This document shows, one piece after another, positions 30,174 to 64,000 of a DNA stretch of 64,000 nucleotides (its first letter is position 1; each line of letters starts with the position of its first letter). This DNA is from an uncultured Actinomycetota bacterium. Lineage in GTDB: Bacteria; Actinomycetota; UBA4738; HRBIN12. Location of the stretch: contig CAWIUW010000013.1 of NCBI GenBank assembly GCA_963839395.1, forward strand, positions 25,870 through 89,869. The letters are read 5' to 3'. Made by a program: the position numbers and the translations under genes. The notes beneath the pieces are model-generated. The model did no database searches, was not told the DNA's origin, and saw nothing but the letters and a program-made list of their open reading frames with translations.

Positions 30174-30213
30174 GCTCGACCAGCCCCGCTCTAAGCGCAG
30201 ACGGAGGACGAGG

Positions 30214-33449: not shown

Positions 33450-34787
33450 TCACAGGGGAGCCGGGGCGCGGCTGGGGACCGATGGCCCTTCGACCGGGGG
33501 CAGGATCCCTTCGGGGTCCTCCCGCGAGGCGTCGGCGAGGGCACCCGTTCGCTCGATGTCCCGCATGCCGGGGAGGAACAGGAACGAAAGCGTCACGATG
33601 GCACCCAGGATCCCCGCGCCCACCAGCGTGTTCCGGGGTCCGAAGATCCCGGCGACGGGGCCCGTCAGCGCGAAGGACAGCGGCACGAGACCCGTCGAGA
33701 TGAACCAGTCGAAGCTGGACACCCGGCCGAGGAGCCTCGCGGGCACCAGCCGACCCTTCGTGGTCGCCCAGACGATGGTGCCGGCGCCTTCCAGGGCGTT
33801 GAAGACGAAGCTCGCCACCATCAGCTGCCAGGGGAACGACGCGAGCCCGTAGCCGGCGATGGCGACCGTCGACAGGGTCCAGACCACGTACATGAACGTG
33901 ATGTGCTTGCGAGGCATCTCCCGGTTCCCCATGACGACCGCGGCGAACATCGCCCCGACGCCTCCGAGGGCGAGGATGAACCCGAGGTCCCGGGCCGATC
34001 CGTGCATGTGGTTCTTCACGATGAACGGAAGCAGGACTTCGGACGGTCCCCAGAAGATCAGATACGCGAGGGTCGCTGCCAGGAACGTGCCCCAGAGCCA
34101 CACCCTCGATCTCACGAACCGGAACCCTTCGCGGATGTCTTTGAACGCGCCCCTCCGCTCCTCGTGAGGACGTTCGATCTCGTGCGACCGCATCAGGGCG
34201 ACGCACACGATCGAGAGGACGAACGTGAACGCGTCGATCAGGAACGCCGGTCCCGGATGACCGCTCCACATGGCGATGAGCCACCCGCCGATCGCGGGGC
34301 CGATCATGCGGGCCGCGGCCGGGCGGATGAACTGGTCCAGTGAGTTGGCCTGGTTCAGGTCGGCACCCGGGACGAGCTGCGGGACGATCGCGTCGAAGGC
34401 CGGCCCGAAGAACGCGGTGCCGGCGCCGAAGGTCGCCGCGACGATCAGGATGTGCCAGAGCTCGAGGTTCCCGGTGATGGACAAGGCTCCGAGGATCCCG
34501 ACGCTCACCGCGCGCAGCGCGTCGGCAGCGATCATCACGCGCCGCCGGTCGAACCGGTCGCTGACGACGCCACCCACCAACAGGAAGACGATCTGCGGCA
34601 CGGTCATCGCGACGCCCACGATCGAGAGCGCCGTGGGCGCGTTCGACAGCTCGTAGACCTGCCACGCCAGGGTCACGAGGAAGATGCCGTCGCCGATCAA
34701 CGACGCGGTCATCCCGGTCCAGAGCAATCGGAAGTCGCGGTGTCGGAGGGGGCGGAGGATCCGGACGCGCTCGACCAGACCCCTCAT
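33450..34787 (-). CDS. MFS transporter (EntS/efflux-like, 12 TM)
   Basis: MRGLVERVRILRPLRHRDFRLLWTGMTASLIGDG... is a typical MFS_1 N-terminus. ATG 34785-34787 lies 2 nt after the TPR gene stop. Confidence 0.8.
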   Translation of the reverse strand: MRGLVERVRILRPLRHRDFRLLWTGMTASLIGDGIFLVTLAWQVYELSNAPTALSIVGVAMTVPQIVFLLVGGVVSDRFDRRRVMIAADALRAVSVGILGALSITGNLELWHILIVAATFGAGTAFFGPAFDAIVPQLVPGADLNQANSLDQFIRPAAARMIGPAIGGWLIAMWSGHPGPAFLIDAFTFVLSIVCVALMRSHEIERPHEERRGAFKDIREGFRFVRSRVWLWGTFLAATLAYLIFWGPSEVLLPFIVKNHMHGSARDLGFILALGGVGAMFAAVVMGNREMPRKHITFMYVVWTLSTVAIAGYGLASFPWQLMVASFVFNALEGAGTIVWATTKGRLVPARLLGRVSSFDWFISTGLVPLSFALTGPVAGIFGPRNTLVGAGILGAIVTLSFLFLPGMRDIERTGALADASREDPEGILPPVEGPSVPSRAPAPL

Positions 34788-34789
34788 GG

Positions 34790-35485
34790 TCACGCCGTCT
34801 GGGAAGCCACCCGGAGGGTGGATCGGAGGAGGTCTCGGGCCGCGATCGCTTCCCGCGTTCCCGCGAGGGCGGGTCGTTCGGCGAGGCACTCCTCCAGGTC
34901 GTCGAGGCCCATACGGACGACGCCTCGGAGACGCTCGACGCCCCCGTTGACCGCCTGGTGGATCCCGCGCTGGTACTCGAGGAACGCGCGACCGCGGTCG
35001 CCCTCGCACATCAGTGCGAGGGCGAGGTCGAACCGAACGGCCGTCCACCGTCCGTCGAGCTCGAGGGCGCGACGGAGGGTCGCGACGGCCTCCGGGTAGC
35101 TGCCGAGCCGGAGCTGGCACCACCCGATCAGCTCGAGGAGATCGATCTCCTTCTCGGCGCGAGGGGTGCCCTCGTCGATGACCGCTCGCGCGAGCCGGTT
35201 GGCCTCTTCGATGTCACCCATCCGCCGGTAGACGTTCGAGAGACCCTCCTTCGCCCAGAGCGCGGTGGGGTCCAGTTCGAGCGCGCGCGCGTAGGCGTCG
35301 CGCGCACCGGCGAGGCCGTCGGCGCCGAGGTTCTCGAGCGCCCATCCGCGCGCCGTGTGGACGGCGGGCTCGTTCGGGTGCTCGGCGACCTGCCGATCGA
35401 GCTCTTCGAGCGCCGCCTCGTATCGGCCGGCCTCGGAGAGCTCCTCCACGCGGCCCAACCCTTCGGCGACAGGACCTTTCGTCAT
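34790..35485 (-). CDS. TPR-repeat protein (231 aa)
   Basis: Repeated AxxxYxxALELDP / WAKEGL / AxxAxxRALELD helical-repeat signatures. Confidence 0.7.
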   Translation of the reverse strand: MTKGPVAEGLGRVEELSEAGRYEAALEELDRQVAEHPNEPAVHTARGWALENLGADGLAGARDAYARALELDPTALWAKEGLSNVYRRMGDIEEANRLARAVIDEGTPRAEKEIDLLELIGWCQLRLGSYPEAVATLRRALELDGRWTAVRFDLALALMCEGDRGRAFLEYQRGIHQAVNGGVERLRGVVRMGLDDLEECLAERPALAGTREAIAARDLLRSTLRVASQTA

Positions 35486-36894
35486 CCCGTGTTCCCTCCC
35501 GCTCGGGCGGCTCGTTCCCGGAGGAGCTCGCGATGTCCGTCATGTTGAAGTTCGAAGCGTTCGTTGATCTCGCCGAGGACCTCGCACAGCCGCTCGATCT
35601 GCTCGTCACCGTTCGCCGCGGTGATCTGGATCCGGAACCCGACCTCGTCCATGGGCACGAGCGGGTAGGCGGCCATCGTCACGTAGAGCCCGCTGTCGAA
35701 GAGGTAGCGACCGACCACATCGATGTCCTCGTGGTCGGCCAGGGGAACCTCGATCAGCGGGTAGCCGGATCGATTGGGCGTGTAGATGTCGAGCTCGTGG
35801 AGCCGGTCGAGGACCCGGCGGGTCTTCCGGTACATCTGGAGGCGGTTGAGATCGCCGCGTCGCTCGTTCACGTCGAGTCCCGCGATCGTCGTCGCGAGGG
35901 ACGCGATCGGCGAAGGCCCCGAGTAGAGGTAGGGAGGCGCCGCGACCTTCAACACGTCCTTGAGCCGCGTCGGCAGGGTGAGGAACGCGAGCAGCGACGA
36001 GTACGCCTTGGAGAAGCCGGCGACGAAGATCACGTTCTCGTAGGTCTCGCCCTGGTGGCGGACGACGCCGTTGCCGCGCTTGCCCCACGGACTGAGCTCG
36101 TCGGTCGCTCGCTCGCCGACGACCCCGAACCCGTGGGCGTCGTCGACGTAGAGGAGCGCGTCGTATTCGCGCGCCAGACGGGCGAACGCGTGCAGATCCG
36201 GCGCATTGCCGAGCATCGAGTTGACGCCGTCGAGCGCGATCACGCGAGGCGTGATCGCGCTCGACCGCAGCAGCTCCTCGAGATGGCCGGGGTCGTCGTG
36301 GCGGAAGCGTTGGACGGTCGCGCCGTGGCCGCGCGCGATCATCGCGCCGTCGTAGATCGTCTTGTGTGCCCGTCCGTCGAGGAACACCGTGCCCGCGCCC
36401 GCGAGGACCGGGATGACGGACATGTGGATGTGTGTGATCGTCGGGAACAGCAGGGTGTCCTCTCCCCCGACGAGCTCCGTCACCTTGTGCTCGATCTCCT
36501 CGTACAGCACCGGGCTCCCGAGGAGCCGCGACCACGACGGGTGGGTGCCCCACGCGTCGAGGTACGCCGGGACCGCATCGACGATCTCGCGGTCGAGGTC
36601 GAAGCCGAGGTAGTTGCACGACGCGAAGTCGAAGAGCCACCGGTCGCCGATCCGGATCCGCCGGCCGTCCTGCTCGTCGATCACGGCGTCGAGCATCGGG
36701 TGGGAGTTCTTCAGCCGAGCGAGGTCCGCGACGGTCTCCATCCAGCGATCGAGCCATCCGTCGCTCTGGCGCCGGAGCGGTTGCGGTCCGATCGGACCGG
36801 TCACGACCGTGTCGGTCGCCCGCCGGCGCGGGTCATCGGACCTCGCGCGAGCGAACCAGGGTGGACGGGAGGCGCGTTCAGCAAGCGGCGACAT
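35482..36894 (-). CDS. PLP-dependent alpha-oxoamine synthase family enzyme (BioF/KBL/SPT/CqsA-like class II aminotransferase)
   Basis: FASCNYLGFD, DDAHGFGVVG, PLP-lysine motif GFSKAYSS. ATG 36892-36894. The ORF-track N-terminal extension to 37311 is Arg-rich and spurious. Confidence 0.8.
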   Translation of the reverse strand: MSPLAERASRPPWFARARSDDPRRRATDTVVTGPIGPQPLRRQSDGWLDRWMETVADLARLKNSHPMLDAVIDEQDGRRIRIGDRWLFDFASCNYLGFDLDREIVDAVPAYLDAWGTHPSWSRLLGSPVLYEEIEHKVTELVGGEDTLLFPTITHIHMSVIPVLAGAGTVFLDGRAHKTIYDGAMIARGHGATVQRFRHDDPGHLEELLRSSAITPRVIALDGVNSMLGNAPDLHAFARLAREYDALLYVDDAHGFGVVGERATDELSPWGKRGNGVVRHQGETYENVIFVAGFSKAYSSLLAFLTLPTRLKDVLKVAAPPYLYSGPSPIASLATTIAGLDVNERRGDLNRLQMYRKTRRVLDRLHELDIYTPNRSGYPLIEVPLADHEDIDVVGRYLFDSGLYVTMAAYPLVPMDEVGFRIQITAANGDEQIERLCEVLGEINERFELQHDGHRELLRERAARAGGNTG

Positions 36895-37055
36895 GAGACC
36901 CGTATCGGCCGAATGGGTGAGGGGCTTAACACCTACAAGGGGGTATCTCCCGCGCCGGACCGAGCACGGACGCAGCACGGACGCGCCCCTCTTCGTGAGG
37001 GGCAACGCAGAACCCCCGCACGTGTGGCCCATATGGGGGACACCGGGCTCGCGAT

Positions 37056-40603: not shown

Positions 40604-42184
40604 TCAGTTGGCGGGCCTGATCGGCCTGCCGAGATAGACCCACACGGCATCGGTGTCCGCGTCCACGCCGACCGCCAGCACCTCGGCGCCGACCGGGAAC
40701 TCCTGCACGTCGCGGCTGGACGCGTCCACGCGGTAGATGGAGCCGTCGCGATCTCCGATCCAGATGGCATCGCGACCCGCCGCGATGTCGGTGGCATCGT
40801 TGCCGACGCGGGCCGAGCCCCTCACCGAACCGGACACGGTATCGACCTGGGTGACGATCCCGACCTGCGCATCGAGGATCCAGAGCTCGTCGCCGCGGCC
40901 GACCATCTGGTCGATGCTCCCGGCGATCTCGATCCGTTCCCCCGTCGGCTGCAGGGTCTCCCGGTCGACACGGTTCACCACTCCCTCGAGGATGTCTGCC
41001 ACCCACAGGCCGTTCTTTGTGCCGACCATCGGCCCGATCGAGAGGTTCGTCTCCGTCTGGTCACGAGCTCCGGTCGCCGGGTCCATGCGGACGAGCGTCC
41101 CGTCGCTATCGCCGACCCAGAGCAGTCTGTCGACCGCGAGTGAATATGTCGCGATCCCGGCCGCGGACGGCAGGACGAGGAACGGCCGCGGCTCATCGGT
41201 CCCCGGGTGCACGCGATAGAGGGTGCGGTCGGTGAGAACCCACACGGCATCGAGGCCGGCTTCAACGGACTGCGACGTGCCGACGCCGACCTCGATCCTG
41301 TCAGATCGCAGATCTCCGTCGATCGGATCGATGTGAAGGAGTTTGGGTGGTCTCATCAACCACACGCCGCCCTCACCGACGGCCAACGGGTGATCGATGA
41401 ATCTGAGGTCGTCGGAGAAGCGGCTCTGATCCCCTCCGATGAACACGGTCTTCCCGACCCGCCCGGTCTCGGGGTCGATGCTCGCCACCGTGTTCCTGAG
41501 GACATCGCTGCCGACGGCAGGCTGCTCGGCCCCACCTCCCCACACCACCCACGCCCCCACGATCAGCGCGAGGACGCCGGCCGCGATGCCCACGAGCAAC
41601 GCCCAGCGTCGTCCACCCGCCGGGAAGATCTCCCGTCGGCGCTCGGCCGCCACCTCCTCTTCGAGAGGTGGCGCCACTTCACGGCCGTCGACTCCGGTCA
41701 CGCCGAAGAGCCGGAACTCGCCGTCGAGCCCCTTGAGCTGATGGACGCCGTGCTCGGCGAACGTGATGCCTGCGCCGGGAACGATCTCTCGCACGGAGGC
41801 AGGAACCAGGACCTCCCCCGCACCTGCGACCGACATCACCCGAGCCGCGGTGTTCACGACGAGGCCGCCGGGCTTCCGGCCGACCGTCTCCAGCTCGCCG
41901 AAGCTGACGCCGGCCCTGATCTCGATCCCGAGCCCGCGGACGGCCTCGGTGGCCTCGACGGCACACCGGATCGCGTCGGCGGGGCGTTCGAACGCCACGA
42001 AGAACCCGTCGCCGGCGGTGTCGATCTCACGGCCACCGAAGCGACTGATCAGACGGCGAAGGAGCCGGTGATGCCGGGCCACGAGCTCGCCCCACCGGGT
42101 GTTGCCCATCTCGGCGGCGATCGCCGTGGAGCCGACGATGTCGGTGAACAGAACGGCGCCGAGGCCGCCGGTGCGCCGCTGCAT
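40604..42184 (-). CDS. Membrane-anchored class III adenylate/guanylate cyclase with an extracytoplasmic beta-propeller-like C-terminal domain
   Basis: Cyclase AVLFTDIVGSTAIAAEMG...GDGFFVAFERPADAIRCA. One TM (WALLVGIAAGVLALIVGAWVVW). The C-terminal region has repeated D/G/W/V beta-strand motifs. The stop is 7 nt before the BenE start. Confidence 0.8.
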   Translation of the reverse strand: MQRRTGGLGAVLFTDIVGSTAIAAEMGNTRWGELVARHHRLLRRLISRFGGREIDTAGDGFFVAFERPADAIRCAVEATEAVRGLGIEIRAGVSFGELETVGRKPGGLVVNTAARVMSVAGAGEVLVPASVREIVPGAGITFAEHGVHQLKGLDGEFRLFGVTGVDGREVAPPLEEEVAAERRREIFPAGGRRWALLVGIAAGVLALIVGAWVVWGGGAEQPAVGSDVLRNTVASIDPETGRVGKTVFIGGDQSRFSDDLRFIDHPLAVGEGGVWLMRPPKLLHIDPIDGDLRSDRIEVGVGTSQSVEAGLDAVWVLTDRTLYRVHPGTDEPRPFLVLPSAAGIATYSLAVDRLLWVGDSDGTLVRMDPATGARDQTETNLSIGPMVGTKNGLWVADILEGVVNRVDRETLQPTGERIEIAGSIDQMVGRGDELWILDAQVGIVTQVDTVSGSVRGSARVGNDATDIAAGRDAIWIGDRDGSIYRVDASSRDVQEFPVGAEVLAVGVDADTDAVWVYLGRPIRPAN

Positions 42185-42249: not shown

Positions 42250-43023
42250 TCAGGAGTGGATCGAGCGTGTCCTGCGGCAGGTCGGGTACCGAGAGCATCC
42301 GAGGAACCGCGCTCCGTCGGTCGTGCGGGTCCGAGGGATCATGTGTCCCCCGCAGCCGCATCGTTCCGACGGGAGCGTGTCAACCCACGTGTTGGCATCC
42401 GCCGCGGCCGCGGCGAGCACGATGACGTCACTCGAACGGAGGATCGGCGGCTGCCCCAGCATCCAATGCTTCACCGCACGTGGGCCACCCACGAAGACGT
42501 CAACCGGCCGTTCCTCTACGGTCCATTCGTCGGCAAGGATCGCGAGCAGTCCCCGCACCTCCACCGATCTGCCGATCGCCCTGGACAGCAACCTCGCGGT
42601 CCGGACTGCTTCCTCGGACGCCTTCGGCAGGAAGTCCGTCCGTTGGCCGTGGTGAGTGACCGAGCCCGAGGTCACGACGATCTCGCCTGAGAGGTATCTG
42701 GTGTTGATCGTGAAGACCCCGCTCGGCCCGATCACGAGATGGTCGATGTGGGCGCCTCGCGCGCCGACCGGGACGTCGTGGAACGCGAACCAGCCGTCGG
42801 GCAGGCGCCCCAGCCACCAGCCGGTGATGCGTTCGCCGCTCGCTTCCCTGCGCCACGCGCGCTTGTCGGTGTGGATCCCCAAGAGCCGTGCGAAGCGGCT
42901 CCCAACGGGCTGGGCAGCCCTGAGCTCATGAGGCTGTTCGGTGACCGACGTGCCGGGTCGGCGCCCAACCGGCGTCTCGCCCGGCCCGACGCTCGGCATC
43001 CGTTCGTTGGGATCGACAGCCAT
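42250..43023 (-). CDS. NERD (nuclease-related) domain protein fused to a topoisomerase-type C4 zinc ribbon
   Basis: NERD core ...GWFAFHDVPVGARGAHIDHLVIGPSGVFTINTRY.... C-terminal CGCGGHMIPRTRTTDGARFLGCSRYPTC. Confidence 0.65.
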   Translation of the reverse strand: MAVDPNERMPSVGPGETPVGRRPGTSVTEQPHELRAAQPVGSRFARLLGIHTDKRAWRREASGERITGWWLGRLPDGWFAFHDVPVGARGAHIDHLVIGPSGVFTINTRYLSGEIVVTSGSVTHHGQRTDFLPKASEEAVRTARLLSRAIGRSVEVRGLLAILADEWTVEERPVDVFVGGPRAVKHWMLGQPPILRSSDVIVLAAAAADANTWVDTLPSERCGCGGHMIPRTRTTDGARFLGCSRYPTCRRTRSIHS

Positions 43024-43160: not shown

Positions 43161-45011
43161 ATGCCCCACATCTGCTGTGGGACTGCCGACACCGGCACAT
43201 TCCCTCCTCCGCGCGATACCGCTCAACCGGTTCGGCCCTCAAAGTTGGCCCTTCGTCCAGGGCCGGCACCGGTCGGTCGCGACAGGGAGGGGACACCGCT
43301 GCTCGAGATCTCGGTCAGGAGGTCGGCGGTCGATGCTGCCCCGAGGAGCTTCATCGCCGTCGCGAGCCTCATCCTCTGCGCGGTGATCGCCGCCACCCTC
43401 GTCCAAGCGCCCTCGACCGACTCCCGGCCCGACATATCGGTTCTGATCCACGAAGCGGATCCGGCTTCGCGCCTCGCAGAGGATCTCGTCCACGCTATAG
43501 GCGGCAACGTCACTCGACCGCTCCCCCTGATAGGCGGGTTCGCTGCGTCCGTGCCGGACGATCGCCTCTCGATGCTGGCCGCCGACGACGCGATCATCGA
43601 GCTCTCCGTCGACGGCCGCATCCAGATGGCCTCGTCCGGCACGGACGCATACGACGCACTCGACCCCAACCTCGCCTGGCGGAAGGCGATCCGCCTGGGC
43701 CAGCTGCCGGCCGGGATCGATGGCAGCGGCGTAACCGTCGCGATGATCGATACCGGCGTGGCACACCATGAGGATCTCGGCGACCGGGTGGTCGCGCGGG
43801 TCGACTTCACGCCGGGCGGAGCCGGGGACGACCAGTTCGGACACGGCACCCATCTCGCGGGCGTGATCGCCGGCGACGGGACAGCCTCTTCGGGCAAATG
43901 GCGTGGGGTCGCCCCCGCGGCACAGCTCGTTTCCGTGAAGGTCGCCGGCGCGGATGGCTCCACCGACGTGTCCGTCGTGATCGCGGCACTCCAATGGGTT
44001 GTTTCACACCGGGATCAGTTCCACATCCGCGTGCTGAACCTCTCGTTCGGAACCGACTCGATCCAGCCGTACGCGCTCGACCCACTCGACGCGGCCGTCG
44101 AGCGCGCATGGGCCGCCGGCATCACGGTGATCGTCTCGGCCGGGAACCGCGGCCCCGGGCTCGGGACGATCGCCAAGCCGGGCGACGATCCCTACGTCAT
44201 CACGGTCGGCGCAGCGGATCTGAACCAAACCCCAGAGCGGTGGGACGACGAGGTGGCTCCGTTCTCGAGCCGAGGTCCCACCCAAGACGGCTTCGAGAAA
44301 CCGGACCTCGTCGCACCCGGGACGACGATCGTCGCCACGCGCGACGTAGGCAGCGCGGTCGACCAACTCCACCCCGAGGCCATCATGGACGACCGATACT
44401 TCAAGGGCACGGGGACCTCGCAGAGCGGCGCGATCGCATCGGGCGTGGCCGCGCTGATGTACGAGGCCAACCCGCACCTGTCGCCGAATCGCGTGAAGGG
44501 GATCCTCACCGGCACGGCCTTCAAGACGGCGGCCTACCGCGTCGGGGGCGGCGACGGCCTCATCGACGCCACCGGTGCCGTGCTTGCAGCCACGAGCGAT
44601 GTCGCCAACCCGAACGCCGGGTTGATCAGATCGACCGGGCTGGGGACGCTCGAAGGCAGCCGAGGTCGCTTCCACGTGGAAACCGATCTCGATGGGGACG
44701 GGCAGCCGGACCTGGTCGAGGGCGAGACGGATGTCCTCGGCGACCCGTGGGACTCGAACTCGTGGTCCTCGACCTCGTGGTCGTCGAACTCCTGGAGCTC
44801 CACCTCATGGTCGTCCTTGATCGGGGAGAACGACGGCTGGTCGAGCACATCGTGGAGCTCGACATCGTGGAGCGGGATGAGCTGGAGTTCGACCTCATGG
44901 AGTTCGAACAGCTGGAGCTCCACCTCGTGGAGCTCCACCAGTTGGAGTTCGACCTCATGGAGTTCGACCAGTTGGAGCTCGAACAGTTGGAGCTCGGTCG
45001 CCTGGAGCTGA
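43161..45011 (+). CDS. Secreted subtilisin-like S8 serine protease with a C-terminal (S/N)(T/S)SWSS repeat tail (copy 2). Its 5' end is uncertain, with a probable frameshift near 43335.
   Basis: About 80% identical in protein to copy 1, with the same triad motifs. ATG 43333 has a perfect AGGAGG SD 9 nt upstream, but it is +1 to the main frame. Adding one nt after MLPR gives the signal peptide MLPRRSFIAVASLILCAVIAATLVQA. Confidence 0.8.
   Translation: MPHICCGTADTGTFPPPRDTAQPVRPSKLALRPGPAPVGRDREGTPLLEISVRRSAVDAAPRSFIAVASLILCAVIAATLVQAPSTDSRPDISVLIHEADPASRLAEDLVHAIGGNVTRPLPLIGGFAASVPDDRLSMLAADDAIIELSVDGRIQMASSGTDAYDALDPNLAWRKAIRLGQLPAGIDGSGVTVAMIDTGVAHHEDLGDRVVARVDFTPGGAGDDQFGHGTHLAGVIAGDGTASSGKWRGVAPAAQLVSVKVAGADGSTDVSVVIAALQWVVSHRDQFHIRVLNLSFGTDSIQPYALDPLDAAVERAWAAGITVIVSAGNRGPGLGTIAKPGDDPYVITVGAADLNQTPERWDDEVAPFSSRGPTQDGFEKPDLVAPGTTIVATRDVGSAVDQLHPEAIMDDRYFKGTGTSQSGAIASGVAALMYEANPHLSPNRVKGILTGTAFKTAAYRVGGGDGLIDATGAVLAATSDVANPNAGLIRSTGLGTLEGSRGRFHVETDLDGDGQPDLVEGETDVLGDPWDSNSWSSTSWSSNSWSSTSWSSLIGENDGWSSTSWSSTSWSGMSWSSTSWSSNSWSSTSWSSTSWSSTSWSSTSWSSNSWSSVAWS
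44748..45008 (+). repeat. 18-bp tandem repeat array, about 14 units, encoding the SWSS hexapeptide tail of protease copy 2
   Basis: Same unit and same internal interruptions (LIGENDGW, SWSGMSWSS) as copy 1. Confidence 0.9.
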
Positions 45012-47809: not shown

Positions 47810-48066
47810 GGGCTATGTATCGGCATCCCGACATCCAGAACTTCAGTTCGTAGCCCTCACCGACGGGAGGAACGGAGGACGGGTGAGACAGCGGAGGGCC
47901 GCCGACCAGCGGATCCTCGCGGTTTCGGACCAGAGAAGGGGCGGGTCTCACGCCCCTGCAGTAGGCGCCCTGTGGGGGTTGCACCGGTCATCCGAAGCTC
48001 CGAGGATTGCGAAGGTAGTTCCGATCGATGCCGAACCCCCGAGGAGGCATCACGCGCACGCGCACG

Positions 48067-48573
48067 ATGGTTATCGCAGGCACGGGAGCTGCCGCCGTCG
48101 TCTACCTGTTCGAGCCGCACGGGGGAAAGGCGAGGCGCGAGCGCATCCGTGCCTCGATCCGGCCGCTCACGCGTACGCGAACCGTCCCGGTGGAACCGAT
48201 GTCTGCACCAACGCCCGAGGCGTCCCGCGAGGAGCCGATCGCCGAGCCGGCCCGGGCGCCGTTCAGGGACGAGCCCATGCCCGTGGCGAGCCCGAGCGCC
48301 GGCGTAGACGACGCCACGATCATCCGCGGCGTCAGGACGAAGCTCCAGGAACGGCGCGACCTCAGGACCGACGATCTCGTGGTGGACGTGGTCAACGGCG
48401 TGGCGTACCTCTCGGGCGACCTGCATGACCGACAGACGTTCGGCGAGGTCGTCGACCTTGCCGCGGAGGTCCCCGGCGTCCGCCGGGTGCAGAGCCTGCT
48501 GCACCTCCCGAAAAGCGAGACGATCTCAAGGAAGATCTCCGGTCAGCGAGCCGACGAGGATCGCCGAACGTGA
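48067..48573 (+). CDS. BON-domain protein with N-terminal TM anchor (OsmY-like)
   Basis: TM MVIAGTGAAAVVYLF. BON DLVVDVVNGVAYLSGDLHDRQTFGEVVDLAAEVPGVRRVQSLL. The ORF track starts at 48028. Confidence 0.6.
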   Translation: MVIAGTGAAAVVYLFEPHGGKARRERIRASIRPLTRTRTVPVEPMSAPTPEASREEPIAEPARAPFRDEPMPVASPSAGVDDATIIRGVRTKLQERRDLRTDDLVVDVVNGVAYLSGDLHDRQTFGEVVDLAAEVPGVRRVQSLLHLPKSETISRKISGQRADEDRRT

Positions 48574-49820: not shown

Positions 49821-51754
49821 GTGCGCGACCTGGACGGCATCCTCGCCGGGCTGAACGATCCCCAGCGCGAAGCCGCCCTCGCGCTTCGCGGCCCGGTCGC
49901 GATCCTGGCGGGTGCCGGCACCGGCAAGACCACCACGATCACGCATCGCATCGCCTGCCAGGTCCGGAGCGGCTCGTTCAAGACATCGCAGATCCTCGCG
50001 GTCACGTTCACGGAGAAGGCCGCCGGGGAGCTCAAGCGGCGGCTCGCGGCGCTCGGCGTCGACGGCGTCGAGGCGCGCACGTTCCACTCGGCCGCGCTCT
50101 CACAGCTGTCGCGGCTCTGGCAGACGCATACCGGCGAGCCCCTCCCCCAGGTGCTCGATCACAAGGCGCCGCTGATCGCCTCGCTCGCGAACGCGCTGCC
50201 CCCGCCCCACAAGTTCCTCCCCCGCCGCGAGCTCGCCGGCGAGATCGAGTGGGCGAAGAACCGGATGATCCCGCCGGACCGGTACCTCGCCGACCTCGAG
50301 CCCAACCATCACGAGCCGCCGATCCCACCGGAGCTGATGCTGCGGATCTACGAGGGGTACGAGCGGCGCAAGCGCACGATGGGGCGCCTCGACTTCGAAG
50401 ACATGCTGGGTCTCGCTCTGCGGCTCTTCGACGAGCACCCCGAGGCTGCGGAGATCGTCCGCGCTCGCTTCCACGCCTTCACCGTCGACGAGTACCAGGA
50501 CGTGAACCCGCTCCAGGCGGGGCTGCTCGACCGATGGCTCGGCCCGCGCGACGACCTCTGCGTCGTGGGCGACGACTACCAGACGATCTACGCGTTCACC
50601 GGCGCGTCGCCCGAGCACCTGCTCGGCTTCACGCGGCGGTTCCCGAACGCGACGGTCGTGCGCCTCGAGGAGAACTACCGCTCCACGCCGGAGATCCTCG
50701 ACTTCGCGAACCGCTTGGCTCCACATCTCGGTGGGTTCCGGAAGACGCTCCGGGCGACCACGGCCTCGGGAGCGCCGCCGGTCGCGCGCGCCGCACGCGA
50801 CGAGGGCGGCGAAGTCGCGTCCGTCGTCGGGGCCGTCCGGGGACTCCACGACGAGGAGGCCGTGCCGTTCGAGGAGATCGCCGTGCTCTACCGGATCAAC
50901 GCTCGATCGGAGCCCTTCGAGGAGGCGTTCGCTTCCGCCGGCATCCCGTACCAGGTGCGCGATGGGGCGTTCCTGCGACGGCCCGGGCCACGCTCGGTCC
51001 TGCAGCGGCTGAAGCGGTTGGGCCACGACGACTCGCTCGTGCACGCGGTCACGGCGATCACCGCGGAGTTCGGGTACGACCCTGGATCGTCCCCGGACTC
51101 GGACGAAGAGGTGACGCGCCAGTCCGACCTCGCGCGGATGCGCTCGCTCGCGGCGGAGTTCGAGCGGGCGCATCCGGACGGCGACGCCGCGGCGTTCCTC
51201 GCGGAGTTGACGAACCGGTTCTCGACGGAGCACAGCGGCCGCGGCGTGAACCTGCTCACGTACCACCGCGCGAAGGGTCTCGAGTTCGACGCCGTGTTCC
51301 TCCCACGGCTGATCGACGGTGAGCTCCCGTTCCGGTCGGGCCGCGCGAAGGCCGACCCGCAGGAGGAACGCCGGCTGCTCTACGTCGGGATCACCCGCGC
51401 CCGCCGCTTCCTCTTCCTGACGTGGGCGGTCGAAGGGCGGTCGCGGCCGAGCCCGTTCCTCGAAGAGATGGGGGTCTCAGCCTCGCGGCCGTCGGGACGA
51501 GGGTCGCCCCGACCGGTGTCCGTCTCATCGGCAGGTGGCGGCGCGCTGTTCGACCGGCTGAAGGAGTGGCGACGGAAGCGAGCACAGACGGATGACGTGC
51601 CCGCCTACGTCGTGTTCCACGACCGGACGCTCGCCGAGATCGCCGACCGGAAGCCGGGAGACCGGGCAGACCTGGCCGTCGATCTCCGGCGTCGGACCGG
51701 CCAAGCTCGAGCGGTACGCCGACGAGATCCTGGAGATCGTCGGCCGGACGTGAC
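49821..51754 (+). CDS. UvrD/Rep-family DNA helicase with C-terminal HRDC domain (UvrD2-like). The HRDC is interrupted by an apparent frameshift near 51660.
   Basis: GPVAILAGAGTGKTTTITHRIA (Walker A), VDEYQDVN, YRST motifs. After ...VPAYVVFHDRTLAEIADRKP the HRDC continues in the +2 frame as ...ISGVGPAKLERYADEILEIVGRT* and ends at 51752-51754. Confidence 0.75.
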
Positions 51755-51777
51755 CGGGACGTGGAAGCGTCCTTGCC

Positions 51778-54752
51778 TCATCGCGACTCGCCGAGCCCAG
51801 CGAGCCGATCACGCACCCGCTGAGCCAGAACGAGGTGCCCCTTCCGTTCGTATCGATCGAGTGCCTGCCGGAGTGCCGCGGCTGCCTCGTCGGGCTTCCC
51901 TGCGAGGAGGAGCACCTCGGCGAGGTCGGCGTTCGCATCGCCTTGCCCGATGAGCGAGTCCGTTCCTTCGCCGATCGCGACCGCCTCACGGGCGAGCCGC
52001 TCCGCCTCGGCATGCTCGCCTCGGCGAGCAAGAACCCTGGCCCTGACCTGCCGCCACACCATCTCCTTCAGAACGTCGTCCCTCGAGCCGAGCTCCGCCG
52101 AGCGGCCGGCCCAGTGGTCGGCCTCGTCCAGCCGGTCGAGGGCGTAGTACGCCCGCGCGAGGTTCCCGGCCGCGGGCGCCAGGAAGTCTCGGTTCGCCCA
52201 TCTCCTCGTGCAGCCGGAACCCCTCTGCTCCCTGCTCGGCTGCCGCGGTGGGATCACCGGCCCAGAGCTCGAGGTCGACGGACTCGAAGGCGAGGAGGTT
52301 CGCGAGCAGGGTTCCCCCGCCCCGCTCGGACTGGTCCGCACGCGCCTCGGCGAGGATCGGCGCGGGCCTCGTCGAGACGACCGAGCATCGCCACCGTCAT
52401 GGCGCGGTAGGCACGGAGGAACTGGTCCCGCGCCGCACGCGGTTCGTTCTCGTCGAGCCACTCGAGAAGATCCGGACGCGGGGGTCGACCCGAAGTAGCG
52501 ATACGCGGCGAGGGACCCGATGCCCCCGGCCGGCAGGCCGGCCTGCCGAGCGTGCGCGAAGGCCCGTTCGGTGGCTTCCAGCGCCGCGTCCATCTGTGCG
52601 CGTACCCCCGCCACCTCGGCGAGCCCCGAGTAGGCGATGTAGAGGGCCAGATGGTCGCCGGCGGCCTCGAGCTCGGGTAAGGCCCCCTGGATGGATGCGG
52701 CAAGCTCCTCCGTCGCTCCCTCTGGCTGGAGGTTGAGACGGGACACACCCGCCATGATCCTCCCGGAGATCTCGACGACACGATCGCCCGTCGCAGCAGC
52801 CCGCTCGGCGAGAAGATCCGCTCGCCGGAGCGCTTCGTCGGTCCTGCCTGTCCAGAACAGGACCTCCCCGAGCTCCGTCTCGAGGGCGAGGTCGATCTCG
52901 TCCGGAGGCACGAGTGTCGCTGCGCGCTCGAGCAGGCTCACGGCGGCGCCGTAGTCCTGCCGGCGGGCCGCACGCTGCCCGCCTGCAACCAGGCGCCGCC
53001 GCGCCGCGGCGGCGAGGGTGCCGTCGTCGGCTGTCCCGAGCTCGGAGCGGTAGCGGCAGGCCTGTTCGAGGTGGTAGCCGAGGAGCTCGTCCAGTTCCAC
53101 GAGCTCGGTCCCGTGCTCCTCCAGCCAGGATGCGAAGCGCTCGTGGAGGTCCGCCCTGGTCGCTTTCGGGAGCGCGTCGTGGGCGGCGTCGCGGATGAGG
53201 ATGTGGCGGAAGCGGAAGCCGTCCTCGCCCGGGAACAGCGGCTTCTCCGGCCTGATCAGCTCCTTACGAACGAGCGCGGTCAGGCGCGACGTCACCTGAG
53301 TCTCCTCGGGTGAGAGCGCCTGGACGGCACCTCGGTGGAAGATCTCACCCTCGATCGCGCCCCGCTCGAGCACGCTCCGCTCGGCCGTCGGGAGCTGGTC
53401 GATACGCGCCGCGAGCAGCGCCTGCAGCGTGGGCGGCACGACCACCTGGCCGTCCGTTTCGCGGGCCACGGCGAGCATCTCCTCGATGAAGAGGGGGTTG
53501 CCGCCCGAGGCGCGAGCGATCGTGTCGCGCAGCTCGCCGGTCGATCCGCTCCGGGATGAGCTCGTCGACGTCTCCGTCGCCCAGGGGTTCGAGCCGAAGC
53601 GCCACCGGCCAGGCAGGGCGGCGCTCCGTGAGCTCCGGCCGCGCGATGCAGAAGAGCAGGATCGCTGCCCCCGAGGACAGGAGCTCGACGTGCTCGATCA
53701 GGTCGAGGAACACCTCCTCGCCCCACTGGATGTCGTCGAAGACGACCACGAGCGGCCGTTCCGCAGCGGCGTGCTCCAGCGTCTTGCGGAACGCCCACGC
53801 GATCTCTTCGGCGGATGTCGCCGCCTCCCTCTCGCCGAGCAGCGAGCCGACCGCCTCAGCGGCGGCACCTTCCGGAGGCTGCACGTGGAGCTTCTTCAGC
53901 ACCTCGACGACCGGCCAATAGGTGATCCCCTCGCCGTATGGGGGGCAGCGGCCGCGCAGGACCGTCGCCTCGATCGACGCAAGCAGCTCCGCGGCGAGCC
54001 GAGACTTGCCGACGCCTGCATCCCCCGCGACCGTGATCAGCTCGCAGCGTTCCTCGGCCCGCACGCGCTCCCATGCCTGCTGAAGCGATCGTGAGCTCGC
54101 GCTCGCGGCCTACGAAACGTTCCCCTCGCGGGCGCTCCGGCACGTCGTGCACGCGCAGCAGCCGGTAGGCGAGAACCGGCTCCGACTTGCCCTTCAGCTC
54201 GAGAGGCTCGAGCGGCTCGACGTCGGCTGCGTTGCGAACGAGCGCGAGCGTCGGTTGGCCGATCAGCACGTCTCCGGGTGGGGCCGCCTGCTCCAGCCGA
54301 GCGGCGACGTTGACGGCATCCCCGGTCGCGAGCCGCTCCTCCGTCCCCGTCACCACCTCCCCGGTCATGACGCCGATCCGTCCCTCGAGCCCGAGCTCGG
54401 GAAGCGCGTCCCGCATCTCCGCCGCCGCCCGTACCGCCCGCAGCGCGTCGTCCTCGTGCAACGCGGGCACGCCGAACACGGCCATCACCGCATCACCGAT
54501 GAACTTCTCGACGCTGCCGCCATGCCTCTCGACGATCGCCTTCATCCGGTCGAAGTAGCGCGCGAGCACCGCACGGAGGCGCTCCGGGTCGAGCGCCTCT
54601 CCTAGCGCGGTCGAACCGGTCAGGTCGCAGAAGAGGACGGTGACCGTCTTCCGCTGTTCGCGAGGGAGCGCCGCGCCGGAGGCCGCGCCGCATCGGGGGC
54701 AGAACGTGAACGCAGACTTCGACTCGTAGCCGCAGTTCACGCATGCCGGCAC
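51778..54752 (-). pseudogene. Zinc-ribbon/class III cyclase/AAA-STAND/TPR protein, paralog 2, fragmented into three frames
   Basis: 53856..54752 (MPACVNCGYESKSAFTFCPRC + cyclase VTVLFCDLTGSTALGE...). 53345..54064 (AAA: ITVAGDAGVGKSRL...VVFDDIQWGEE). 51778..53478 (TPR region). Confidence 0.75.
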
Positions 54753-54761
54753 GCGAGAAGT

Positions 54762-57700
54762 CTAGGTGCCGTCACTTCGGACGTCGTCGATCAACGCTCG
54801 CGCCGACGCCGTCCCGGGCTCGTGCCCCTTGCGCTCGTACGCCGCCAACGCGGCGCGGGCCGCGTCCGCCGCTTCCTCGGGCAGGCCGGCCGCGCGTGCG
54901 ACCTCCGCGAGCGTCATCAGGGTAGTCCCCGTGGAACCAGGGGCTCTGCGCCTCGGCGTAGAGGTCGACGGCCTCTCGTGCGAGCCGGCGCGCCTCTTCG
55001 TGCTCGCCTCGGGACGACCGGACCAGCGCCTGGGCGGAGCGCGCGCTCGCCTGCGTGGCCAGGTCGTCGTCGGCGCCCATGGTGCGCGCGATCGTCGCGA
55101 ACTCCTCCGCCTCGTCGAACCGACCCAGACGACAGAGCGCGACGGCGAGGTATGCCGCGGAGGTCGACCCGTGTCCCTCGTCGCCGAGGCGCCGATGGAT
55201 CTCGTATTCCTTGCGGAACGATCGCTCAGCCGCCTCCGGGTCACCCGCCATCTGCTCGATCTCGCCGCCGAACTCGTAGCACGCCGATGACCCACAGACT
55301 CCGAACCGAATCGCTCAGCGAGCGCCTCGGACTCACGGATCCGTTCACGGGCTCGATCGAAGTCACCGGTCATGGCGTCGAAGACACGCTTCCGTGCATC
55401 AGGGCGACGTGGCCGATGAGTCCGTCGCGCCCGAACTCGGTCACCACCGCATCGAGCGACGGCCTCCCTTCGGCGGGCGACGTCGACCCGAGCAGCTCGG
55501 TCGCCAACTTCATGGTCATCGCGTCCATCAGGAGCGACCGATCTCCGGTGCGGCGCGCGTGCTCCACGGCGTGGATCGCCGCCTCCCTCGCCGCGTCGAA
55601 ACGGCACGGCATCCATTCCACCTGCGCGAGCCCCAACCACACGACGCGAGCGCCTCGTCGTCGCCGCCCGGCTCGAGCTCGGCTCTCGCCGCGGCCACCT
55701 CCGCTCGGAGGTCGTCGGTGGTGAAGCCGATCGGGTCGATCATCATCTGCACGAGGCCCCGTTCGATCCTGGCCATCCACTCGATCGATCGCTGTCCGCT
55801 CGCAGCGGCCGCCGCCACGGCCTCGTCGAGCGCGAGCGAACGCCACGCGTGGGTCGAGGCCGCGCAGGCTCGCCCGCCCGACGTCGTACAGGGCGCGGGG
55901 TCGATCCGGATGACCCTCGGGGAGGAGGTCGGCCGCGTGCCGGAACAGCGTCGCGGCCGCCCGGTCGTCGCTCCGATCCGACGCTCGGCGGGCGCTCGCC
56001 GCGTAGTGCCTGGCGGCTCGAAGCCCCAGCTCCCGACCCGCCTCATCCAGCGGGCCGAGCTCCGAGCAGGAGCAGGTGTGCCTGCTCCAGGTGGTAGGCG
56101 AGGATCTCCTCGAACTCCTCGACTCGGGCCTCCCCGACGCCCTCGAGCCAGTCGGCGTACCGCTCGTGCAGCTCGGCACGGAGCGCCTTGGGCGCGGCCT
56201 CGTAGGCGGCGTCGCGGATCAGCTGGTGGCGGAACCGGAACGCGTCCTCGCCCGCGAGCATCGAGCGGTCCGGCCGGATCAGGTCGCGCCGGACGAGGCT
56301 CATCAGGGTCGGCCGCACCTCCCCGCCGTCGACGTCCAGCAACGCCGCGACCGCGCCCACGTGGAACTGCTTGCCGCACACCGCCGCCCGCTGGATCGCC
56401 GCCCGTTCGTCGCCGGTGAGCTGATCGAGCCGCGCGGCCAGCAGCGCCTGGATCGTCGGAGGCACCCGGAGGTCGGACAGCGCACCCGTCGCCACCCATC
56501 GGTCGCCGTCGCGAGCGAGCAGTCCGTCGTCGATCAGCATCGAGAGCATCTCCTCGACGAACAGCGGCGTGCCCTCGGCCGCGGCGAGGATCCGATCGCG
56601 CGCCTCCTCCGGGAGCGCGGCGCGACCGAGCAGGTTCCCGATCAGGTCGCCGCACTGATCGTCGGAGAGCGGCTCGAGCGAGATCGTCGTGGCGTTGAAC
56701 TTGCCGCCGGCCCCAGCCCGCCCGCTCGTCCAGCAGCTCGGGCCGCGCGAGGCAGAGCACCAGGATCGGCGCCTCGCGCGCCCAGTCCGTGATGTGCTCG
56801 ATCAGGTCCAGGAACGTGGGCTCGCCCCAGTGGATGTCGTCGAACACCACGGCGAGCGGCGCGGTCTGCGCGACCGCCTCCAGGAACGACCGGACCGCCC
56901 AGAACGTCTCCTCGACCGAGCTGTCGCGATCGGCCGCGGCGAACAGCTGCGCGAGCGTCGAGCACGCCGGGCCGTCCGTCCCGATGCACCGCGCAGATCT
57001 TCCGCTCGATCTCCTCGGGCGCGTCGAAGTCCTCCAGGCCGGCCGCCTCCTTCACGACCTCGCCCACCGGGAAGAACGTGATCCCCTCGCCGTACGGGAG
57101 GCACCGGCCTCGAAGGACGGTCGCCTCTTCGAGCGAACCGAGGAACTCCTCGACCAGCCGGGATTTGCCGACCCCGGGGGTACCGAGGATCGTGAACAGC
57201 TGACACGAGCGATCGGCGATCGCGGCCTCGAACGTCTGCCGGAGCCGGGAGAGCTCCCGCTCCCGACCGACCATCGGCGAGTCCAGGCGACGAGCGAGCC
57301 CGGCGACCCCGGCCGTCACCTCGACCAGACGGAACGCGGCGAGCGGCTCCGACTTGCCCTTGACCTCGAGCGGCGAGACCGGCTCGGCGACCACGGCGTC
57401 CCGGACGAGGCGAAGGGTCTCCTCGCCGATCAGGACGGTTCCCGGCTCCGCCGCCTGTTCCAGCCGGGCGGCGACGTTCACGGCGTCGCCGGTGACGAGC
57501 GTGTCGGCTTGTTCCCCCGCCACCACCTCGCCGGTGTTCACGCCGATCCGGGCGGCGAGCGAGACGCCGTGGTCGCGTTCCAACTCCTTGTTCAGCGTCG
57601 TGAGCGCGTCTCGCATCTCCGCCGCGGCGCGAACCGCCCGAAGGGCATCGTCCTCGTGGATCGCCGGGACCCCGAACACCGCCATCACCGCGTCGCCGAT

Positions 57701-57952
57701 GAACTTCTCCACGGTCCCCCCGTGGCGCTCCAGCGCCGCGCGCATCTCGGCGAAGTAGCGCGACATCACCCGGCGGAGCGATTCGGGGTCGAGGCGCTCG
57801 CCCATCGCGGTCGAGCCCGTGACATCGCAGAAGACCACCGTCACGGTCTTGCGGACCTCCTGGCGGCCGGGCGGAGCCAGCGGCGCCGAGCACGCCGGGC
57901 AGAACGCGAAATCGTCCGGGGACTCCCGCCCACAGTTCGCGCAGGTCAGCAC
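54762..57952 (-). pseudogene. Zinc-ribbon/class III cyclase/AAA-STAND/TPR protein, paralog 3, fragmented over at least 5 frame segments
   Basis: 56642..57952 (MLTCANCGRESPDDFAFCPAC, cyclase, P-loop ILGTPGVGKSRL). 55528..56850 (MVFDDIHWGEPTFLDLIEH...). 56043..56549, 55370..56179 and 54762..55640 (TPR). Confidence 0.7.
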
Positions 57953-58074: not shown

Positions 58075-58425
58075 ATGCCAGGTATCGAGAGCAGGACTTT
58101 CAACAAGCCGGACGAGACGAAGTCGATGGACAAGACGACGATCGAACTGGTCGGGCTCGCGGGCGGCCGGATCCAGCGGACGACGTTCGAGCCTGGATGG
58201 CGGTGGTCCGAGTGCATCGGGCCGGCGGTCGGCTCGGATCGCTGTCAGGTCGAGCACATCGGGTATGCGGCTGCGGGTCGGCTGCAGATCGAGCACGACG
58301 ATGGGAGCACGACCGAGATCCAGGCCGGTGACGTCTTCCGGGTCGCGCCGGGACACGATGGGTGGGTCGTCGGCGACGAGCCGGTCGTCTGGATCGAGTT
58401 CCAGGGAGCGGCCCACCTGACGTGA
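58075..58425 (+). CDS. Cupin domain protein (116 aa)
   Basis: ATG 58075 with GAAGGAGGAGAGG SD. ...VEHIGYAAAGRLQIEHDDGSTTEIQAGDVFRVAPGHDGWVVGDEPVVWIEF. Confidence 0.65.
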   Translation: MPGIESRTFNKPDETKSMDKTTIELVGLAGGRIQRTTFEPGWRWSECIGPAVGSDRCQVEHIGYAAAGRLQIEHDDGSTTEIQAGDVFRVAPGHDGWVVGDEPVVWIEFQGAAHLT

Positions 58426-62264: not shown

Positions 62265-62299
62265 CGTCGGACGGCAGCATGACCGCTCGTCGTCGATGT

Positions 62300-64000
62300 T
62301 CAGTCGAGCAGAGCGTCCACCGCGCCGAGCGTGTCGGTCAGTCGCTCCGCCAGCGTCGTCGCGAGCCATCGGTGCAGCGCCGCGGCGAGCTCCGGCTCCT
62401 CGGACTCGAGGCGCTCGATCGACTCGCGGCTGATGCGAAGGACCACGGAAGGGGCCTCGGCCACGACGTCTGCGGTGCGCTGGATGCCCGTGTAGAGCGT
62501 GATCTCACCCACGACGACGCCGGGCCGGAGCGTCCGCAGCCGGAGCCGGCTGCCCTCGGGCGTCGTGGTCTCCACGGCCAGGCGCCCGGACTCGAGCACG
62601 TAGATGTCGCCCGGCGGGTCGTCCTGGTGCAGCAGGACCGTGCCCTCGGGCACCGAGACGCGCTCGAGGTGGGCCTCGAGGCCAGGTGGCAGACCGTCGG
62701 GACCGCGCGCGGAGGGATGCTCCGCCACGGCCTCGGCCAGGCCGGGGGCGGAGAGCAGTGCGTCCTCGCACCGCTGCAGCCCCCGGTCCAGGTCGGGCTC
62801 GAAGGAGACGAGCCCATCGCTCTCGACCACGCCTCCGCGCGCGAGCTGGGCGCGAACCGGATCGGACGCGGCCGTGAAGATCACCTCGGATCCGGAAGAC
62901 TCCGCCAGGCGCATGCACCTTCACGAACGACACGACCGCCGAGGAATCCACGCCCGTCACGCGCCGGAGATCGATCACCAGGAACCGCGGCGGCGTGGCC
63001 TCTTCCACTCGCTGTGCGGATCCGCTCCAGCAGGCGGTTGGTCGATCCGAAGAACACGAACCCGCTCACCCGCAGGATCTGGACGCGCTCGGAGAGCCCG
63101 CGCAGCTCGGCGCGCTCGGTCGGCCGGTCGATCGACGTTGCGAGCGATAGGTCTCGCCGAAGGCGACCTCGCGCACCAGCTCGATCCGGCCGTAGCTGAT
63201 CGCGAACAACACGACCGCGAGCACCAGGCCGATCACGACACCGGTCAGGAACCCCCAGACGATGATCCCCAGCAGGATCACCACCACCACGGCGTATTCG
63301 CGCGGGGGCAGCGACCGCCGCTTGTCCCAGACCCACTCGACGATGAAGGCGAGCCCGAGGAACACCAGCACGCCCCCGACGATCATCTTCGGGATCAGCG
63401 CGACGACCGAGCCGCCCAACACGACGGCGGCCAGCGGGACGAGCGCCGCGACGAGCCCGGCCGCGCGCGCGTCCACGCGCATGTGCGCCGCGAGTGCCGT
63501 GAGGCTGAGCGCGTGATAGCCGGGGATCCCACCGAGCGCCCCCGACACGAGGTTCAGGACCCCGGCCCCGCGCATCTCCTGGTTCGTGTCGAGGTCTCGG
63601 TCCAAGACGAGCTCGGTGCCGCTGATGTTGAACAGGATCGCGAACGTGGCCACGAACACGGCGGTCGCGATCCCGGCCCACGATGCGAGCACGGAGGGCC
63701 AGTCGGCGCCGCCGAGCGCCCTGAACGCCCACGGCTGCCACGGCTGCGCCGTCTCGGACGGTGAGAACAGCAGCCACCCCCCCTCGCGGACCTCCTCGAT
63801 CGAGGAGCCGGTGGCGACCATCCCCGCCACGAACACCACGAGCCCGATCACGATCACCGCCGGGATCACGAGCGGCCGCTTCACGACCCGCACCGCGACG
63901 AGCAGGAGTACGCCGAACGCGAGGGCCGAAAGCCAGTGGGCGAGGTGGTATTGGCGGATCAGCGCGGGGACACAGTTGCACCACCGCCCTGCGCGGTAGC
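62300..64000 (-). pseudogene. SulP-family anion transporter fused to STAS and cyclic-nucleotide-binding (cNMP) domains. Its N-terminus lies beyond the window end and it is fragmented by at least 3 apparent frameshifts.
   Basis: SulP TM region in frame 63066..63893. STAS pieces ...RVQILRVSGFVFFGSTNRLLERI (62881 frame) and PPRFLVIDLRRVTGVDSSAVVSFVKV (62505 frame). cNMP-binding domain in 62300..62914 (GDIYVLESGRLAVE...GVVVGEITLYTG). Confidence 0.65.

Follow-up and report, generated by a model that had tools for sequence, protein, structure and literature searches.

The stretch of DNA analysed here, referred to as the window, comprises 64,000 nt of contig CAWIUW010000013.1 from an uncultured Actinomycetota bacterium and has a G+C content of roughly 70%. 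It encodes three paralogs of a signalling protein in which an N-terminal zinc ribbon is followed by a class III nucleotide cyclase, an AAA_16 STAND NTPase and a C-terminal TPR solenoid. One of them, copy A, is a single uninterrupted open reading frame (ORF) of 1061 aa on the minus strand (17355-20540), and its domains were assigned with Pfam. A tblastn search of the window with copy A returned another two full-length copies, also on the minus strand, namely C at 57943-54795 (E = 0.0) and B at 54743-51790 (E = 3e-154), the matches to each being distributed among the three frames of that strand. An earlier sequence-only reading of the window had described one intact copy and a fragmented tandem pair of this architecture, and the tblastn and Pfam results bear this description out.

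The zinc ribbon of copy A occupies residues 1-25 (20466-20540, CxxC...CxxC; Pfam Zn_Ribbon_1 over residues 4-25, E = 6e-7), and the family alignment shows no variation at its cysteines C4, C7, C18 and C21. It is followed by the cyclase at residues 39-206 (19923-20426; Pfam Guanylate_cyc, E = 8e-23). The PF00211 profile scores 81.5 bits on copy A (cut-off 21.9; profile positions 9-175 of 183), 85 bits on copy C and 68.9 bits on copy B, the latter two after the frame corrections described below. The motifs F[AC]D[VL]TGST, IGDAVMAVFG and GDAVNVAARLE were found in all three copies, and the metal-binding aspartates D45 and D89 and the transition-state residues N163 and R167 are invariant in the family alignment. 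The closest solved cyclases are the guanylyl cyclase Cya2 of Synechocystis (2W01), CyaB (3R5G) and CyaC (1WC0), with E-values of 2e-30 to 2e-20. Cya2 aligns with the window proteins in its metal-binding aspartates, its transition-state asparagine and arginine and its domain length, but has a glutamate at the first specificity position where the window proteins have a lysine (K85, in 'EKFIGD'), which is adenylyl-cyclase-like and is also found in the engineered adenylyl-cyclase version 6FHT. The product of such cyclases is set by a pair of specificity residues, Lys/Asp for ATP and of the Glu/Gly type for GTP, and around the second of these the alignment to Cya2 has a 3-residue gap. The lysine at the first position thus points to cyclic AMP (cAMP) as the product, with the second position not readable, and the domains are probably adenylyl cyclases.

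The STAND NTPase core of copy A spans residues 231-404 (19329-19850; Pfam AAA_16, 83.9 bits, E = 2e-23; fold match 6MFV) and carries the Walker A motif GSAGVGKS and the Walker B motif VVVVFDD. The Walker A pattern G..G.GKS is common to A, B and C, and Walker B reads LVVVFDD in B and LAVVFDD in corrected C. The TPR solenoid, the presumed sensor, extends over approximately residues 640-1061 (17355-18623), with matches to the Pfam families TPR_12, TPR_2 and TPR_21 at about residues 920-1058. In the AlphaFold model of copy A, which has a mean predicted local distance difference test (pLDDT) score of 74.7, the NTPase and TPR parts are confidently modelled (pLDDT above 90 in the TPR part) and the cyclase poorly. 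A Foldseek search of the PDB with the NTPase and TPR parts returned as top match 6MFV, the structure of PH0952 from Pyrococcus horikoshii (E = 1.9e-9 over 813 aligned columns), with low template-modelling scores (0.25 and 0.36) that result from inter-domain geometry. A sequence search of the PDB with the same part gave nothing at E<=1 except one meaningless match. PH0952 shares with the window proteins the order of AAA_16 domain, Walker A, Walker B, helical arm and TPR, although sequence identity is only 14%. Sequence and model together would place A, B and C in the MalT-like branch of STAND NTPases with a TPR sensor. The MalT-like proteins MalT, GutR, AfsR and PH0952 carry a DNA-binding effector or none, whereas the effector in the window proteins is a cyclase.

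Copies C (54762-57952, minus strand) and B (51778-54752, minus strand) have the same architecture as copy A, with a weaker zinc-ribbon match in B. They lie head to tail, as the sequence-only reading had it. The stop codon of C is at 54762-54764 and the GTG start of B at 54752, and because the spacer is only 9 nt the two genes are probably co-transcribed. In order to reconstruct the reading frames, intact orthologs of C and B from another species (locus L006) guided an alignment of protein to DNA that allows for frameshifts. C needed ten frame corrections relative to its L006 ortholog (nine +1 and one -1) and B five (all +1). Corrected C covers 1060 of 1060 codons with no in-frame stop and no codon indel, and is 88% identical to the ortholog. 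Corrected B has 989 codons with no in-frame stop and two codon indels, at 86% identity. The cyclase, AAA_16 and TPR domains are complete in both corrected proteins, every catalytic and Walker motif is present, and coding periodicity, followed by plotting G+C at third codon positions in each frame, is kept in every segment. The 'at least 5 frames' of the earlier reading are to be taken as segments, as a strand has only three frames; B is split into 6 segments and C into 11. Copy A had also been used as a stitching guide, but where the TPR part diverges it put several junctions in the wrong place, and it was replaced by the L006 orthologs. A reference-free 7-state Viterbi tracker of reading frame based on codon usage served as a lead only; it picked up the large frame switches, but it missed closely spaced compensating indels and raised false alarms where the ends of genes overlap, as at 25400.

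Signs of pseudogenes, namely relaxed selection, in-frame stops or lost segments, were sought in corrected B and C and none were found. The Nei-Gojobori ratio of non-synonymous to synonymous substitution rates (dN/dS) between corrected window C and five relatives was 0.16-0.21, compared to 0.17-0.23 for pairs of intact orthologs. For corrected B it was 0.22-0.26, compared to 0.25 for intact pairs. Codon changes unique to window C, counted at sites where three close relatives agree among themselves, numbered 37 if synonymous and 11 if non-synonymous, with no stop among them. The terminal branch of window C is accordingly 23% non-synonymous against a neutral expectation of about 74%, the same as the terminal branches of its relatives. 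These values bear on the possibility that pseudogenisation is real but very recent, with genuine frameshifts having inactivated B, C or both in this strain. Under such a scenario fifteen independent frameshifts would have accumulated, yet no stop codon has been gained, no codon lost, and selection is indistinguishable from that on intact orthologs.

Error and decay were further separated by tests that do not need reads, with assembled sequences being compared. Sibling contigs of the same assembly series were available (L085/L091, L087, L090 and L092). These and related contigs derive from long-read metagenome-assembled genomes (MAGs) and assemblies of the Microflora Danica (MFD) project; they are named 'contig_N' in the manner of Flye, under accessions of the form ERZ250394xx-395xx, and a scan of species-representative genomes likewise yielded mostly 'MFD...bin' MAGs with contig names of this style. 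The Microflora Danica catalogue is Nanopore-only and was assembled with Flye --meta --nano-hq followed by one Medaka polishing round (PMC12313526). We infer from the near-identical siblings that the assembly of the window is of this type. Over 22.8 kb the window is 98.46% identical to L090 (contig_106948), with 315 mismatches and 29 gap openings that are mostly 1 nt long, many of them within genes. The copy A protein is identical to P0001 of this 261-kb contig (ENA ERZ25039547 contig_106948), which is not the contig of the window, and an exact look-up of the first 436-aa fragment of C had no match. Across C, identity to the window is 95% for L090 and 92% for L085.

The ten lesions of window C are all on the minus strand and were positioned on the residues of the intact ortholog. 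The first, an extra base at residue 323 (56985-56986), is not in L085 or L090. Guide alignment and sibling comparison placed further +1 lesions at residues 416 (56706-56709), 629 (56066-56067) and 706 (55834-55835), at residues 853 and 857 (55380-55394) and at residue 1008 (54924). The only -1 lesion is at residue 769 (55644-55646), where both siblings are one base longer, and two +1 lesions at residues 884 and 887 (55288-55298) fall into a hot spot that recurs in five assemblies. In L090, in turn, C is frameshifted at residues 150, 324, 513, 887, 941 and 957, and in L085 at residues 544, 883 and 1021. None of the extra bases of window C was recovered in either sibling, and both siblings hold lesions of their own at other sites. 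For B, guide alignment placed five +1 lesions on the minus strand at residues 223 (54086, approximate to a few nt), 402 (approximately 53548), 758 (approximately 52476), 797 (approximately 52358) and 851 (approximately 52195). A MAFFT majority consensus of the three C sequences (window, L090, L085) yielded an ORF of only 431 aa and is not informative either way; L085, at 92% identity, brought noise into the alignment, and the residue-level comparison was used in its place.

Two regions of C are hit repeatedly, residues 323/324 in two assemblies and residues 879-890 in five, the latter adjoining the conserved GATTCGGTTCGG. In contig coordinates these hot spots are at 55288-55298 and 56979-56986 in the window, 6898 in L085, 12636 in L017, 2665 in L035 and 15672-15677 in L090. 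Because the position and identity of the inserted bases vary from assembly to assembly, the hot spots look less like inherited lesions than like a sequence context prone to error. The recurrence is also the sole observation that could be brought forward, and not a specific one, for biological recoding, in which programmed frameshifting or phase variation would tune expression of the sensors. The 15 sites, however, have no slippery motif or repeat tract in common, the inserted bases at the recurrent spots differ between assemblies, and the orthologs elsewhere are plain uninterrupted ORFs. Recoding is effectively refuted by the intact orthologs and retains next to no probability.

All but one of the 15 lesions in the two tandem copies are single-base insertions, and the same bias was seen in the lesions of other window genes and in L035 and L017. 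In true pseudogenes of bacteria the bias is towards deletions, and this contrast counts against genuine pseudogenisation as well. Neither are the lesions restricted to the cyclase genes. With sibling ORFs as guides, frameshifts were detected in the window genes for a SulP-STAS transporter (six), a 4HBT thioesterase (three), a DSPc phosphatase (two), a 316-aa protein (two), a 420-aa protein (one) and a JmjC protein (one, for which it is ambiguous which assembly is in error). Eleven further window genes were clean in the same comparison, as was copy A. Copy A is itself damaged in another assembly of the series. L087 (ERZ25039532 contig_27767), equivalent to window positions 19091-36979, has 129 gap openings in 18 kb, roughly 7 per kb, and its copy A ortholog needs at least 6 corrections in the first 560 residues, its PAS-kinase gene 26 and its S8 peptidase gene 8. 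In L003, also of this series, many housekeeping genes are fragmented. Orthologs of C in other Nanopore MAGs are broken at other sites again, and those in Illumina assemblies and in several Nanopore assemblies are intact.

Since the lesions in C are private to each assembly, unrelated genes are hit, selection is kept and insertions prevail, the fragmentation would belong to the assembly and not to the genes. The frame breaks in B and C are, on this evidence, very likely single-base indel errors of a Nanopore-only Flye/Medaka assembly and not decay, with somewhat lower confidence for B taken alone. The sequence-only reading had named sequencing error as an alternative to decay, and the private lesions, the intact dN/dS and the damage to unrelated genes all favour that alternative. 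Its preferred account, decay of the two tandem copies, finds neither relaxed selection nor stops nor lost codons behind it, and the lesions in C are not shared with the siblings.

Several observations weigh against error as the explanation. B is missing from both siblings, hence no near-identical comparison exists for it, and because it is missing from two sibling strains it is dispensable, such that a real pseudogene is harder to dismiss for B than for C. Mycobacterial relatives of these genes are frameshift-pseudogenised in isolates of M. tuberculosis (PMC4452763). The inserted bases are not homopolymer extensions, and no motif was enriched near the lesions among GATC, CGATCG, nine other motifs and an unbiased 4-mer scan; neither is what classical Nanopore errors usually look like. 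The density of frameshifts in B and C, 2.4 per kb, exceeds the roughly 0.65 per kb of the other compared genes, although the SulP and 4HBT genes locally reach 3.3-3.6 per kb. Copy A and the stretch at 24-30 kb are indel-free in two assemblies, meaning that errors would have to be strongly clustered, for which coverage or strain mixture is our guess. Finally, the convergent neighbour of B, a gene for a UvrD-type helicase with a C-terminal HRDC domain (49821-51753, plus strand), is frame-broken at about 51678 by a lesion that is identical in L090, and not every lesion in the window is therefore a random error. The conserved tail of the helicase runs on in the +1 frame, and once the two parts are joined the HRDC domain is complete (E = 2e-23); the lesion is either a genuine mutation or an error that basecalling makes systematically. 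Dispensability of B, the mycobacterial precedent, the lesion density and the unusual inserted bases are also what can be said for recent pseudogenisation. It remains an improbable explanation in view of the unaffected codons and selection, the insertion bias, the privacy of all lesions in C and the occurrence of the same type of lesion in unrelated window genes and in copy A of another assembly.

Two lines of evidence were set aside in the course of the analysis. The helicase frameshift had been counted as evidence for random error and was withdrawn, as it is common to the window and L090. Errors at methylation motifs had been considered when several junctions seemed to hold GATC or ATCG, and no enrichment was left after correction for multiple testing. 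More generally, runs of single-base insertions in Nanopore-only MAGs from soil can mimic a decaying pseudogene family. Error and decay can be separated without reads by codon-by-codon colinearity with orthologs, by dN/dS and terminal-branch counts and by asking if sibling assemblies have the lesions in common.

Pairwise identity among A, B and C is 44-48% overall (cyclase 60-70%, NTPase 54-57%, TPR part only 36-38%), and each copy belongs to a separate, widespread lineage of intact orthologs of constant length, about 1058-1060 aa for the C type and 980-992 aa for the B type. The C-B tandem is intact in two other species with a spacer of 19 nt (L006, C ortholog 1060 aa and B ortholog 989 aa; L008, 1060 and 984 aa). 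In CAWGWB010000007.1, which was covered by L008 and L050, C and B are followed after about 28-31 kb by an A-type gene on the same strand. Judged by this divergence and distribution, the three genes arose by duplication long ago, not in a recent expansion, and their sensors have since diverged. The earlier proposal of tandem expansion followed by decay thus fails in its first part as well, given the age of the paralogs, their own ortholog lineages and the intact tandem elsewhere. The family comprises at least 8000 clusters, mostly from Actinomycetota and also from Chloroflexota, and is annotated as 'class 3 adenylate cyclase/TPR repeat protein'. All three copies are, as far as the corrected sequences tell, functional genes and ordinary members of a known, abundant and little-studied signalling family, of which uncultured soil Actinomycetota have several old and conserved paralogs with diverged TPR sensors.

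The closest studied relatives are the mycobacterial cyclases of the Rv0386 type, with the window proteins belonging to the broader cyclase-STAND-TPR kind and not to mclx proper. Like the mclx proteins Rv0386, Rv1358 and Rv2488c, they consist of a class III cyclase, a MalT-type P-loop ATPase with Walker A motif and TPRs, are about 1000-1100 aa long, and occur in actinobacteria with several paralogs per genome. Unlike these, they lack a C-terminal LuxR/GerE helix-turn-helix (HTH) domain and have an added N-terminal zinc ribbon. Pfam searches found no GerE or other HTH domain in copy A at E<=0.01 or in corrected B and C at E<=0.001, and the proteins end in TPRs. The window cyclases also differ in carrying the canonical specificity lysine of 'EKFIGD'. 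A glutamine-asparagine pair with a side activity as guanylyl cyclase is a feature of Rv0386. The pair behind this side activity is worded as belonging to Rv2488c in one report (bioRxiv 10.1101/2024.03.06.583649), and the architecture of Rv0386 is described as cyclase/ATPase/TPR/LuxR (bioRxiv 10.1101/2024.03.06.583649; PMC4452763). A second named family resembles the window proteins in part. Residues 31-653 of copy A align to positions 277-906 of the TOMM kinase/cyclase fusion model TIGR03903 (E = 6e-75), but the score is 252.8 bits against a cut-off of 705.75 and the N-terminal kinase part of the model (positions 1-276) is unmatched.

The sequence-only reading had likened the proteins to antiviral STAND systems, and a role as NLR- or Avs-like sensors with a second-messenger cyclase as effector, following the logic of Pycsar or CBASS, was weighed accordingly. 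The layout of effector, STAND NTPase and repeat sensor is that of Avs proteins, there are several paralogs per genome, B and the slot downstream of C are strain-variable, and the TPR part is the fastest evolving (dN/dS 0.23-0.42). PADLOC moreover matched the cyclase domain to PycC (PDLC00734, E = 2.7e-21); its only other match was a marginal one to PDC-S27 (E = 7e-4 over 44 residues). The PycC matches reflect generic class III homology, however, as ordinary cyclases match better (Cya2, E = 2e-30). No Avs model matched A, B or C in PADLOC-DB 2.0.0, which is dated 2023 and predates newer Avs families that lie outside it, nor did any other STAND defence model match the NTPase at E<=0.01, for which the nearest fold is the MalT-like PH0952. 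No Pycsar effector, that is a domain binding cyclic nucleotide monophosphates (cNMP) joined to a transmembrane or TIR killing domain, adjoins A, B or C. The nearest cNMP-binding domains are those of SulP transporters, at a distance from C of more than 4 kb, and the neighbours are cupin, helicase and ABM-domain genes. All three copies have widespread orthologs whose length is constant and which evolve under purifying selection, and the neighbours of C are stable across species. Defence and non-defence clades of STAND proteins are interspersed (PMC13581612), and architecture alone therefore does not imply immunity. Taken together, an antiviral role is unlikely, and the Avs-like logic proposed earlier is not borne out.

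A signalling mechanism can be proposed from the families to which the domains belong. The divergent TPR domain of each paralog would bind its own ligand or partner, and binding would release auto-inhibition of the STAND NTPase. Class III cyclase active sites form at a dimer interface. Nucleotide-dependent oligomerisation of the NTPase may hence pair the N-terminal cyclase domains, which would then produce cAMP. A plausible receiver is encoded nearby. Tandem SulP-STAS transporters with C-terminal cNMP-binding domains lie 1-8 kb from C-type genes, and the pair was found in this position in the window, L004/L018, L011, L012, L014, L085 and L090 (window 62271-64000, minus strand; L090 2454-6903; L011 5111-9510; L012 4613-8944; L004 156-4339; L014 6559-10812). 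This recurrent neighbourhood offers a testable hypothesis for the output of the cyclase.

C has a further conserved partner, a divergently oriented gene for a 116-aa cupin-like protein (58075-58425, plus strand; weak Cupin_2 match) that also adjoins the C orthologs in L011, L012 and L085. The neighbours of the cyclase-STAND-TPR genes include cupin, helicase, ABM-domain and transporter genes, with a NERD gene 9 kb away. On the other side of C the locus varies. B is a clean presence/absence polymorphism (window 51756-54779; L090 17875-17908; L085 1-6400). In L090 B is missing and the convergent helicase gene lies 24 nt after C, and in L085 both B and the helicase gene are missing. The slot downstream of C holds a B-type gene in the window, L006 and L008, is empty in L085, L090, L014 and L017, and holds a different paralog, 46% identical, in L007. 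The end of C differs accordingly, reading 'VRSDGT*' where B follows (window, L006 and L008) and 'VSAG*' where it does not (L090, L017 and L014). Of the fast turnover that the sequence-only reading had ascribed to the family, the strain-variable B and the varying slot hold up; decay of the tandem copies does not.

A bolder interpretation would combine artefactual fragmentation with a strain-variable array of cAMP-producing STAND sensors, in which C is fixed, the slot downstream is swappable and output runs via the SulP-STAS-cNMP transporters. If such sensors were to perceive phage or other foreign proteins, the array would amount to an NLR-like immune module with a cyclase effector in Actinomycetota. 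This is a speculative proposal that we consider doubtful.

Some minor features of the region were also recorded. In L090, a 3.5-kb insertion that is not in the window (11207-14686) separates the cupin gene from C and includes a gene for a 453-aa protein with a match to GerE, a LuxR-type HTH. The window encodes a fourth, weaker class III cyclase of 526 aa with a DUF6923-like C-terminal part (40604-42184, minus strand). It adjoins a gene with NERD and topoisomerase-type zinc-ribbon domains (42250-43023, minus strand), and a BON-domain gene is located nearby (48028-48573, plus strand); the same trio of cyclase, NERD and BON genes is found near the C ortholog in L004. Two S8 peptidase genes, at 24036-25634 and 43161-45011, have terminal repeats with a period of 15 nt (25502-25634 and 44754-44996) that encode runs of SWSS[TN]. 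The 316-aa protein is basic and without a Pfam match; its gene (13818-14768, minus strand) contains tandem repeats of 124-141 nt at 13903-14406 and, when compared with the sibling contig, is out of frame at two lesions. At window 9038-11154 (plus strand), compared with L002 19392-21503, a 1-nt difference at 10034 fuses the JmjC_2 and Suc_Fer-like genes into one of 703 aa in the sibling. The window has two ORFs here with a proper stop and start, and it is the sibling that seems to hold the error.

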